Made by a program: the position numbers and the translations under genes
NCBI GenBank assembly: GCA_038889075.1
Contig: JAWAHS010000014.1
Location: forward strand, 1 to 37,504
Source: Ignisphaera sp.
GTDB lineage: Archaea; Thermoproteota; Thermoprotei_A; Sulfolobales; Ignisphaeraceae
Direction of reading: 5' to 3'
Length of the DNA: 37,504 bases
The notes under the pieces: generated by a model
The model's input: the letters and a program-made list of their open reading frames with translations, nothing else
What the model was told of the DNA's origin: nothing
The model's database searches: none
Shown here: piece after piece, positions 31,213 through 33,281 of the stretch
How positions within the stretch are numbered: position 1 is the first letter of the stretch
Layout of the letters: each line of letters opens with the position of its first letter

Positions 31213-32053
31213 CATCACCCATTATACGGAACTACATTCATTTCATACAGAACTCCTAAAGGCCAGATTCCATAGTGTGGCAATACTTCTGGCTACTCAA
31301 TACACCTACTTACTAGCTTAAACACATAGTTAATGAACTCTAGATTCTCTCCTACAATATACACCTTATACGTCCCAGAAGGGTTGACATCGCCGCTCGC
31401 AAATCATCAGGCAGAACTCTGTAGTACTATATATGTATTTGATCTCTATACATCATCAGAAAATCCTGAGTTGTAGAGGGAATAGACATCGGGGTAGACC
31501 TCTCTAATTTCTTCAGCTACTCCAACACGTCATCATCACCTGTGGATGTGTCCGTAAGACTATTTATGGAGTACGAGCTTTTGAGGTTAGAGGTACAGTA
31601 TACCCACTGAGGAAGTATCAAGGAGAAACTCTGAAGACGTGATGGGGAAACCGTAAAGCGATATTAACGATAGAGTTGGAGTGGTTAGGTATTCTGAAAT
31701 AGAAGCATTTGAAACAATCTACATATCAATAGCCTAGGGAGGAAATCTAATTAGTGAATTGGTTAGTAGGTAATGCTATACTATATAATTGCTCCTTGTT
31801 CTCTTAAAGTTTTTCGGAGTAGTGATACGTCTAACCTTCTAGGGGGTGTGCTGAGCTTTGCTGAGAGAGCTGCTGCTGTACCAGCTGCCTGACCAATAGC
31901 TACAACTATTGGAATAATCCTTATTGCTGCCTGGGCTTCATGTGTTGATGAGATACACCTTCCAGCAACTATCAGATTTTCTACCTTTAAGGGTATTAAA
32001 CTTCTGTATGGAATCCCATAGTAGTCGCTGGGTGGTGGTCCTTTGATGAGGGT

Positions 32054-32244
32054 CCGTTTGTCCCTGGATATTTATTTTTGTTTGTTCATGTTCTTTTGTA
32101 TCCAGGGACTTCCACCTCACCCATACAGATATTGGTATCTGTATGGGTTCATGGGTGGCTGTTGAGCCCAATGGCACGGGGCTCCCATCTAGCTCAAGCC
32201 CTGGATGGCTTGGAGCATCACTCCCATCACCACCCAGGGCTTCC
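32054..32244 (-). ncRNA. Putative TnpB omega-RNA-like structured RNA
   Basis: Four hairpins: 32196-32204/32234-32242 (9 bp), 32164-32169/32179-32184 (6 bp), 32119-32131/32136-32148 (13 bp), 32060-32070/32099-32109 (11 bp); TATA-like box about 25 nt upstream. Confidence 0.55.
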
Positions 32245-32264
32245 AATAAACATAGAACAAAAAC

Positions 32265-32280
32265 AATGCTTATAAGCATT
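32265..32280. promoter_or_regulatory. Perfect 16-bp palindrome with TATA-like core in the element's left end
   Basis: AATGCTTATAAGCATT. Confidence 0.55.
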
Positions 32281-32588
32281 TCCTAAAAACATCAAGAAGA
32301 AAACAGCCCATCTATGCATATCATCCGTTCTCCAATCCTACCCTAGGTTATGGTGCTTACAAATTCCTTTTAACGAGAATAAAATTAATGTAATGATATA
32401 TGTAGTGGTGGTATTTATAGAGATACAGCTATACCAATTGTATACCTCCATCATTTCTCTGGTTTTTTCTTGGATGTGAAATGATTTGGCAATGTTTATA
32501 GGACGACTCAAAGTCTACAGCAGTCTTACGACTACGATTATGTTAATAGCTTTTAGTTTTAGTAATTAGTAATACAGAATCTCTCGAG

Positions 32589-33281
32589 GTGTCTTTGGCT
32601 TTGTCTACAGTTTCTATACTTATTAAAAGGGTTTTTAGAGGTGGTAGGGTAGAATATTTTGTTGATAGCATTGCAGTAGAGTTTGAGGTAGAGATTTATG
32701 TTAATGATGTTAGAGAGGCTGTTCTGGAGACCTCTCCAACAATGCTAGAGGAACTTGGAATAGGATATGCAAAAGCCCATGGATACAGCATCAGTAGCAT
32801 ATATATTGACAATAATAGAATTAGCATACATGCTAATCTAGATTCTACCAGATCTAGAAGACCAGTAGATGGTGTAAGGATAACAGCTGAAGGTATCTTT
32901 AGGGCTGTAGGAAATACCTTTTCTATGGCAAAGCTATTTAGAGAAACTGGATGTTTCCATGTAGCAGCCCTAGCAACCGTCAACGGAGATGTTGTAGAAT
33001 TTGTGGAGGATATATCAAGACACTGCGCACTGTACAAATTAATGGGAAGCATTATTAAAAAGAATATCGAGACGTATGACAAAGTTGTTGTTATGTCCTC
33101 TAGAGCAGCATCTCGTTTAATAGAATCCATAGCGATACTCGGAATTCCGATAGCATTATTTCGAGGAGCACCAACAAATAGAGCTATTGAAAAAGCAAAA
33201 GAACTTAACATAACATTGGTTGCACATATACGGGAAGACAAATTCAATGTCTATACATATAATCATAGATTGCTATTCTAA
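32589..33281 (+). CDS. fdhD: Formate dehydrogenase accessory sulfurtransferase FdhD family
   Basis: SPTMLEELGIG, LFRETGCFHVAAL, EDISRHCALYKLMG and GAPT..AIEKA motifs. Confidence 0.85.
   Translation: MSLALSTVSILIKRVFRGGRVEYFVDSIAVEFEVEIYVNDVREAVLETSPTMLEELGIGYAKAHGYSISSIYIDNNRISIHANLDSTRSRRPVDGVRITAEGIFRAVGNTFSMAKLFRETGCFHVAALATVNGDVVEFVEDISRHCALYKLMGSIIKKNIETYDKVVVMSSRAASRLIESIAILGIPIALFRGAPTNRAIEKAKELNITLVAHIREDKFNVYTYNHRLLF

Follow-up and report, generated by a model that had tools for sequence, protein, structure and literature searches.

A protein-less IS607-family element with a probable omega-RNA gene in Ignisphaera sp. and its archaeal relatives

Stand-alone omega-RNA loci of the systems called OMEGA (for obligate mobile element-guided activity) carry neither an effector nor a transposase; they are reported to be mobilised and to function in trans when paired with a compatible effector (PMC10691335, citing an earlier study). 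Protein-less PATE-like (palindrome-associated transposable element-like) elements of the IS200/IS605 type in Geobacillus stearothermophilus 'often encode omega-RNAs' that need TnpB in trans (10.1101/2023.03.14.532601). In the IS607 element CboIStron, TnpA has a strict GG core and prefers a 5'-TGGG-3' integration motif, TnpB recognises 5'-TGGG-3' as its target-adjacent motif (TAM) with a scaffold ending in UCGG, and excision needs no more than 40 bp of the left end together with 60 bp of the right end (10.1101/2023.11.20.567912). The TAM of other bacterial IS607 TnpB proteins is AGGAG, or GAGGG in 4 of 22 strains (PMC11061315). We analysed a 37,504-nt stretch of DNA from the archaeon Ignisphaera sp. 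(GenBank assembly GCA_038889075.1, contig JAWAHS010000014.1, positions 1 to 37,504), hereafter the window, with regard to a 256-bp element at 32054..32309 on the minus strand (GGGCTG...ACAAACGG), which had been pointed out in a preliminary description made from the sequence alone. It is very probable that an IS607-derived element carrying an omega-RNA gene resides here. The fuller reading, in which the segment is a non-autonomous, protein-less IS607 derivative composed of a left-end TATA-like box and a complete omega-RNA gene and riding on TnpA and TnpB supplied in trans, was assigned a probability of roughly 0.7.

When compared with the described systems, the element appears to add a member that is archaeal and of the IS607 type to a known class, the stand-alone omega-RNA elements, reported mainly in bacteria, and its novelty is moderate. 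The newness implied in the preliminary description is reduced, as stand-alone omega-RNAs (PMC10691335) and omega-RNA-bearing protein-less elements (10.1101/2023.03.14.532601) are already in print. Archaeal IS607-derived protein-less omega-RNA elements were not described in the papers found, a survey whose coverage is thin for subscription papers and supplements, where comparable elements may already appear. Like the stand-alone loci treated in the introduction of PMC10691335, the present element is a mobilised omega-RNA locus without effector and transposase, but it is archaeal and of the IS607 type, lies behind a retained tnpA TATA-like box, and is found in a host without a cognate effector. 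It also resembles the PATE-like elements in being minimal, non-autonomous and reduced to two ends; those elements are moved as single-stranded DNA by a Y1 tyrosine transposase and possess palindromic sub-terminal hairpins (10.1101/2023.03.14.532601), whereas the window element is bounded by GG junctions and its family has a serine recombinase. With CboIStron it has in common a GG core, a right end overlapped by an omega-RNA that terminates in ...CGG, and the lack of both inverted repeats and target duplication. CboIStron, however, is bacterial, contains a group I intron and has kept tnpB, while the window element holds no genes and no intron (for CboIStron, 10.1101/2023.11.20.567912).

The boundaries of the element were defined by comparison of its copies. 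The host genome (G000, in which the window is contig C14; assembly 99.6% complete, 25 contigs) contained three full-length copies at 98-100% identity, located in the window, at C15:1156-1411 (99%) and at C7:70384-70639 (98%). When the three copies were aligned with 60 nt of flank each, identity began exactly at GGGCTG and ended exactly at ACGG, and both flanks differed among the copies. Neither target-site duplication nor terminal inverted repeats were detected. The preliminary description had proposed a discrete insert of about 253 bp at 32054-32308 and a search for further copies with different flanks; the discrete insert was supported by these two additional copies, and the bounds were corrected to 256 bp and 32054-32309, with all three left Gs counted. 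The sequence features listed there were all present, within 1-4 nt. Read on the minus strand from 32309 to 32054, the element is GGGCTG...GGGACAAACGG. As the terminal inverted repeats and target-site duplication that define MITEs (miniature transposable elements with inverted repeats) in the strict sense were not found, 'MITE-like' refers solely to its size and non-autonomy. Sensitive blastn searches of the host genome further detected three older copies at 64-67% identity (C12:19283-19564, C2:102752-102978 and C2:333662-333897) and two fragments (C5:476-527 and C4:82193-82240). Together with the matches in related genomes given below, this number of copies is well above a chance level. Weak matches to a profile of the RNA region, with E values from 3e-4 to 0.012, were seen at C5:62141-62224, C2:161187-161342, C3:200609-200695 and C13:23871-24006, and may represent very old copies.

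GG was present at both junctions in all three young copies. In the window, the left junction reads ...GATGGG/CTG and the right one ...AAACGG/ACCCTC. The left GGG (32307..32309) includes the crossover dinucleotide GG and follows a T, which gives a TAM-like TGGG; the right-end tail AAACGG (32054..32059) ends in the GG of the right crossover. The right ends of the copies read ACGG, and the right-end motif occurred in the host genome only in element copies and at two chance-like sites. The left flanks of the three copies are TGGG, AGGG and AGGG, and across sub-families most left junctions of protein-less copies among relatives (described below) had the form NGGG/C(T/A)G, a few showing only GG or GGA. 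The family is thus similar to CboIStron in its G-rich target and TAM but, with left flanks of (A/T/C)GGG, is not strictly bound to the TGGG given for that element (10.1101/2023.11.20.567912). Judged from these flanks, an (N)GGG TAM is probable for the archaeal family. The TGGG TAM that the preliminary description gave for an IS607 TnpB agrees with that published for CboIStron TnpB in the same source. Its observation of TGGG as the left flank was correct for the present sequence, but this was probably not the flank of the original insertion, as described next.

The element was inserted into a gene for a flavin adenine dinucleotide (FAD)-dependent oxidoreductase. The remnant of this gene (31781..32053, minus strand) consists of the last 90 codons, directly abuts the element and covers only positions 340-416 of the 416-position profile PF12831. 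A 179-nt contig of the metatranscriptome run X1 matched 32022-32055 with one difference and then continued into unrelated sequence; read on the minus strand, its oxidoreductase frame stays open past 32055, and ...CGGGG stands directly before ACCCTC. This one contig from one run weakly suggests that a related strain has the uninterrupted oxidoreductase gene, that the element entered at a GG within GGGG, and that the present left flank ...ATAGATGGG was brought there later. Beyond that flank lies AT-rich non-coding DNA (32310-32588) up to fdhD (32589-33281, plus strand). The N-terminal part of the oxidoreductase was found neither upstream nor elsewhere in the host genome, and the 5' part of the gene was probably lost by a rearrangement at the left end of the element; the later event could be a deletion or a recombination between two copies. 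No ortholog of the remnant was detected in 20 relatives. The 400-bp flanks of the C7 and C15 copies were compared with 16 congeners, where no contiguous unoccupied site was found, the flanks being too diverged.

These results bear on the explanation that the segment is not mobile at all but native, either as a structured RNA gene or as part of the neighbouring gene, or that it is a small protein gene. The RNA is indeed strongly structured, and an open reading frame (ORF) of 113 aa (31938-32279) runs through the element. This ORF, however, has its start codon within the TATA-like box and extends into flanking DNA, and therefore differs between copies; the 61-aa part of it inside the element had no Pfam match, and the RNA region matched no Rfam family. 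Within the reach of sequence data, the copies with sharp common ends and different flanks led us to reject both the small protein gene and the native RNA gene. The possibility raised in the preliminary description that the segment might be native to the gene at an orthologous locus is likewise opposed by the related-strain contig, in which the gene is uninterrupted. The probability left to a non-mobile segment is negligible.

The origin of the element was examined in the host genome and 60 relatives of its order. DNA of the element was matched in 34 of the 61 genomes. One of them, G054, carries a complete IS607-type element encoding a 216-aa TnpA, with HTH_17/MerR (residues 5-52) and Resolvase (residues 63-195) domains, followed by a 404-aa TnpB with a Cas12f1-like TNB domain; TnpA matches were found upstream in other full-length loci too. 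The right end of the G054 element (...TAGGGACAAACGG / ...CTCTAGGGACAAACGG) is of the same type as that of the window element, including the AAACGG tail. The last ~60 residues of the G054 TnpB (...GDGSGAPSPAGLNLDGSPVPLGSTAAHEP..., ...LKALRGDGSGAPSPAGLNLDGSPVPLGSTAAHEP...WARRKSLEAT) aligned with the frame left in the element (LLEALGGDGSDAPSHPGLELDGSPVPLGSTATHEP...WVRWKSLDT), indicating that the GC-rich part corresponds to the 3' end of tnpB and the right end. Characterised TnpB elements encode their omega-RNA in this segment. In the 10 loci in which tnpB was covered over at least 370 of 404 residues, the region homologous to the omega-RNA overlapped the last ~60 tnpB codons.

The left end (element positions 1-65; 32245..32309) has 29% G+C, when compared with 51% in the remainder of the element and 42% in the window, and was 91% identical to a left end in the congeners G007 and G011. 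In G007, this left end continues into an ATG-initiated remnant, MSEKLLRP, that resembles the TnpA start of G054, MLERLLKP. As the identity with the G007/G011 left end stops at position 65 and the tnpB 3' region is matched from position ~66, a single internal deletion appears to have taken tnpA and nearly all of tnpB, with its junction at 32245/32244. No autonomous element bearing both ends of the window sub-family was recovered intact among the loci of the relatives. The search for a full-length IS607 element with the same ends, suggested in the preliminary description, thus succeeded for the right end, on G054, but not for both ends together. The sequence comparisons support the view that the element is an IS607-family derivative formed by internal deletion of tnpA and tnpB; the shared ends, the homology to the TnpB C-terminus and the covarying RNA described below agree with the origin first proposed.

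The left end includes the TATA-like box CTTATAAG (32269..32276; TTTATAAG in relatives), presumably the former tnpA promoter, within a perfect 16-nt palindrome with a TATA core at 32265-32280. This palindrome had been noted in the preliminary description. It is present, but its palindromy lacks conservation: in copy C7 the symmetry is disrupted, and only TTTATAAGC is common to the relatives. A function of the palindrome itself was rejected. The further claim of a promoter fused to the omega-RNA is consistent with the match between the left end carrying this tnpA-upstream box and the IS607 left end, the promoter function itself being putative. Owing to the deletion, helix 1 of the RNA now lies ~30 nt past the TATA-like box. 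Archaeal TATA boxes are centred ~26-27 bp upstream of the start site, and from this spacing and the position of the box, transcription is predicted to start near 32244-32247.

The region downstream of the deletion junction (32054..32244, minus strand), homologous to the C-terminal ~60 codons of TnpB and the right end, was predicted to fold into four hairpins followed by the tail AAACGG. Its minimum free energy was -93.9 kcal/mol, when compared with -54.5 +/- 4.4 in 200 shuffles (z = -8.9), none of which was as good. The four hairpins of the GC-rich RNA lie between 32240 and 32060, as proposed initially. Hairpin 1 (32198..32240) has an outer helix GCCCTGGGTGG/CCATCCAGGGC and a nested 5-bp helix, and 7 of the 10 pairs of helix 1 had changed on both sides. 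Hairpin 2 (32164..32184) is formed by GAGCCC/GGGCTC, with 4 of 6 pairs changed on both sides, and hairpin 3 (32112..32158), with an outer CCACC/GGTGG and an inner CCCATACAGATA/TATCTGTATGGG, was indicated by both fold and covariation. Hairpin 4 (32060..32109) pairs GTCCCTGGATA with TATCCAGGGAC around a 28-nt A-rich loop, and 7 of its 11 pairs had changed on both sides.

Covariation, the check proposed in the preliminary description, was detected in two alignments. In 20 aligned RNA regions from full-length and protein-less copies, the consensus comprised 44 pairs, 25 of which showed at least one compensatory double change. This consensus structure was projected onto 46 copies without tnpB upstream (three from the host genome and 43 from relatives). 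Standard pairs were formed in 92.2% of the cells, when compared with 30.8-48.4% when the 3' partners were slid by 1-3 columns, and changes on both sides were seen in 26 of the 44 pairs. None of 500 shuffles attained the covariation score of 0.372, nor the 239 double-change cells, against which the shuffled alignments gave 87.1 +/- 6.8; relatedness of the sequences inflates such shuffle tests, and is retained in the slid controls. The homology to the tnpB 3' end and the four covarying hairpins together indicated that the GC-rich part is an omega-RNA scaffold. Homology and structure stop at ACGG, where the flanks of the copies diverge, and the guide would thus be taken from the flank. In the Rfam collection (4227 models), no family reached its gathering score anywhere in the window, and only three chance-level matches (LPR10, mir-3149 and CrcZ) appeared at E <= 10 in 31700-32700. 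The bacterial IS607 TnpB proteins with G-rich TAMs use guide RNAs (reRNAs) derived from RAGATH-18 and encoded downstream of tnpB (PMC11061315); the window RNA, in contrast, matched no Rfam family even at E <= 10, beyond those chance-level matches.

The distribution of protein-less copies was then analysed in 86 loci of relatives taken from the list of element matches (29 and 57 more). A search with the nhmmer RNA profile gave 89 hits, and the 82 hits of at least 60 bits were classified by tblastn with the G054 TnpB. Upstream of the RNA, tnpB was covered over at least 370 of 404 residues in 10 hits and partially (103-239 residues) in 8, two of which were limited by contig ends. The other 64 retained at most the last 77 residues and were regarded as protein-less. 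As 53 of these 64 have at least 1200 nt of upstream sequence, the missing tnpB is not explained by contig ends. The complete scaffold was kept in 42 of the 53. The sequences upstream of the protein-less copies included several left-end types and several distinct deletion junctions, each located a few to ~25 nt upstream of helix 1. The window-type junction falls before the tnpA ATG, the G054 copies L080 and L082 retain this ATG and 4 codons, and other sub-families have short left ends of ~40-55 nt. A TATA-like box (TTTATAAG, TTTATTAG or TTTAAGTA) was found 26-52 nt before helix 1 in most copies. TnpB of this family was present in named hyperthermophilic Thermoproteota, among them Desulfurococcales, Acidilobaceae, Thermogladius, Ignisphaera, Vulcanisaeta and Thermofilaceae.

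A further indication came from eight protein-less copies (seven from G044 and one from another locus) with one and the same junction between left end and RNA, which plausibly descended from one deletion. Among these copies, 17 of the 44 pairs varied, with compensatory change in four, and non-standard cells numbered only 11 of 352. Compensatory change within this lineage points to selection on the RNA structure after the loss of the genes.

These observations were weighed against the explanation that the protein-less copies are inert deletion relics, mobilised a few times, whose RNA-like part is mere right-end DNA and from which no functional RNA is made. Such relics are difficult to reconcile with the retention of the whole scaffold in most protein-less matches, with at least several separate deletion junctions all lying just upstream of helix 1, and with the compensatory changes inside the single-junction lineage. 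As 60 bp of right end were enough for excision in the one IS607 element tested (10.1101/2023.11.20.567912), the ~190 bp kept here are also hard to explain by mobility alone.

Several points, on the other hand, favor inert relics or otherwise weigh against an omega-RNA used in trans. The loci of the relatives were picked by similarity to the window element and are thus a biased sample. The scaffold was incomplete in 11 of the 53 protein-less matches, some of which had lost the DNA between two GATGGGAGC repeats, and the older copies in the host genome are decaying. Family TnpB was detected at E <= 1e-40 in 18 of the 34 genomes with element DNA and not in the other 16, among them an assembly of 2 contigs with 99% completeness, so that many of the copies could be fossils. 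The compensatory changes could have been imported into protein-less copies by recombination with autonomous copies. The TATA-like box may have been kept for mobility and not for expression, since it lies within a stretch of the left end probably needed for transposition, so that its retention is not independent evidence for expression. No transcript of the window copy was found in four metatranscriptome runs: three (X2-X4) were sampled as raw reads at 3-5% of each, a sample too thin as a test, and gave no reads on the element, and X1, available as contigs only, covered conserved core pieces from other family members besides the 179-nt contig. Cognate TnpB was also absent from the host assembly, nine family TnpB queries giving no match at E <= 1e-40 and a best full-length match of 30.6% identity, and both IS607-type tnpA genes of the host are broken, one split by a 1.3-kb insert and the other degraded. 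Taken together, the inert relic is unlikely, although it is the most serious of the alternatives, and the trans-mobilised omega-RNA element remains the preferred reading.

Three side observations belong to these data. In the protein-less loci L112 and L125, the stretch between the two GATGGGAGC repeats, from the 3' half of hairpin 1 to the start of hairpin 2, is gone, a recurrent internal deletion. A 959-nt contig of X1, with a mean depth of 340, contains the RNA core of a related element (window 32144-32191) ~870 nt from the contig start; this layout fits a tnpB transcript, and contigs cannot show strand or expression level. The split tnpA lies upstream of a 448-aa TnpB at G000:C5:39603-41508 (locus L037), and within the 1.3-kb insertion lies a TnpB-like ORF of 376 aa in opposite orientation, one element being nested in another.

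The helper proteins and guides were considered next. Scans of the host genome with PF07282 and PF00239 identified tnpB as four intact genes and two fragments, and tnpA as two remnants, and the nine TnpB queries matched only element remnants and distant TnpB proteins of 24-31% identity. Sensitive blastn and the nhmmer profile revealed no 3' end common to the element and the tnpB genes of the host genome, and a parent element within this genome was accordingly rejected. The identity of 98-100% among the three young copies argues for recent mobilisation, and hence a helper that was present recently or lies outside the assembly; with neither a cognate TnpB nor an intact TnpA, these copies are either stranded or served by a helper outside the assembly. 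The putative guide of the window copy, assigned by position only, is the flank at 32034..32053 (minus strand; ACCCTCATCAAAGGACCACC). Its first 16 nt had no other match in the host genome with fewer than 3 mismatches, and no additional site matched the guides of the other copies at fewer than 2 mismatches over 16 nt.

The four intact but distant tnpB genes, and the persistence of intact-looking copies in genomes without cognate TnpB, leave room for a re-used RNA that would serve another effector, for example a resident distant TnpB (25-31% identical to the family), or host regulation instead of homing. The 3' regions of the resident tnpB genes have no sequence similarity to the element, however, the guides match their own flanks only, and nothing ties the copies to particular host genes. 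We consider such re-use very unlikely.

For the preferred reading, a mobile element with an omega-RNA used in trans, the following course can be envisaged. Mobility would depend on a serine-recombinase TnpA acting in trans, as suggested by the family membership; crossover would take place at GG, into G-rich (N)GGG sites, and neither terminal inverted repeats nor target duplication would be involved. Transcription would begin near 32244-32247, ~30 nt past the TATA-like box and ~5 nt before helix 1, pass through the four-hairpin scaffold, and by read-through past 32054 add the guide ACCCTCATCAAAGG.... Judging from anatomy and covariation, the product would be an omega-RNA guided by the adjacent host sequence. 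A compatible TnpB acting in trans would then be directed by this RNA to cleave the emptied donor site (TGGG and flank), and recombination would restore the element there, so that the element would exploit both proteins of an autonomous IS607. In-trans loading and self-homing are plausible for the family. That its protein-less copies are being used, or were recently used, as omega-RNAs in trans is a tentative proposition, held at somewhat under even odds, and that the window copy itself acts in this way now is improbable.

A still broader generalisation is that IS607 elements of hyperthermophilic archaea have lost both genes more than once, giving promoter and omega-RNA mini-elements that are still selected as RNAs, outnumber their autonomous parents several-fold in the sampled loci, and stay structurally intact without a cognate TnpB. 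We regard this as doubtful. If it were true, the mini-elements would be parasites of a parasite that take recombinase and nuclease alike, and their persistence where no TnpB is resident would suggest that helpers arrive on viruses or plasmids, or that the RNA has another use. Should these copies be expressed, and be loaded in trans, a guide-RNA gene could on its own succeed as a mobile element. Such success would bear on the separation of RNA-guided nucleases and their guides into modules, a step towards CRISPR arrays. Apart from this, the alignments of 20 and 46 sequences provide a well-supported archaeal IS607 omega-RNA structure without an Rfam family, and the thermophilic TnpB/omega-RNA pairs, for which an (N)GGG TAM is probable, are candidate editors. 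For annotation, the element accounts for a GC-rich 'orphan RNA' that recurs in AT-rich genomes of archaea, and for the truncated FAD-oxidoreductase gene.

Some minor observations were made on other members of the family. A second kind of protein-less element was found in the host genome at G000:C4:82100-82243 (minus strand, locus L007). It represents another sub-family of this RNA, in which the hairpins follow one another as in the window element, with compensatory differences; its end is GGGAAACGG, and no tnpB lies upstream. A tRNA-like sequence was noticed by eye within ~60-150 nt of the right end of each of two IS607-type elements, at C1:338700-339013 and at ~1000-1140 of L069, the full-length element of G054. 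In locus L090 (G001:C23, ~1621-1940), two copies of the RNA region are arranged head to head on opposite strands.

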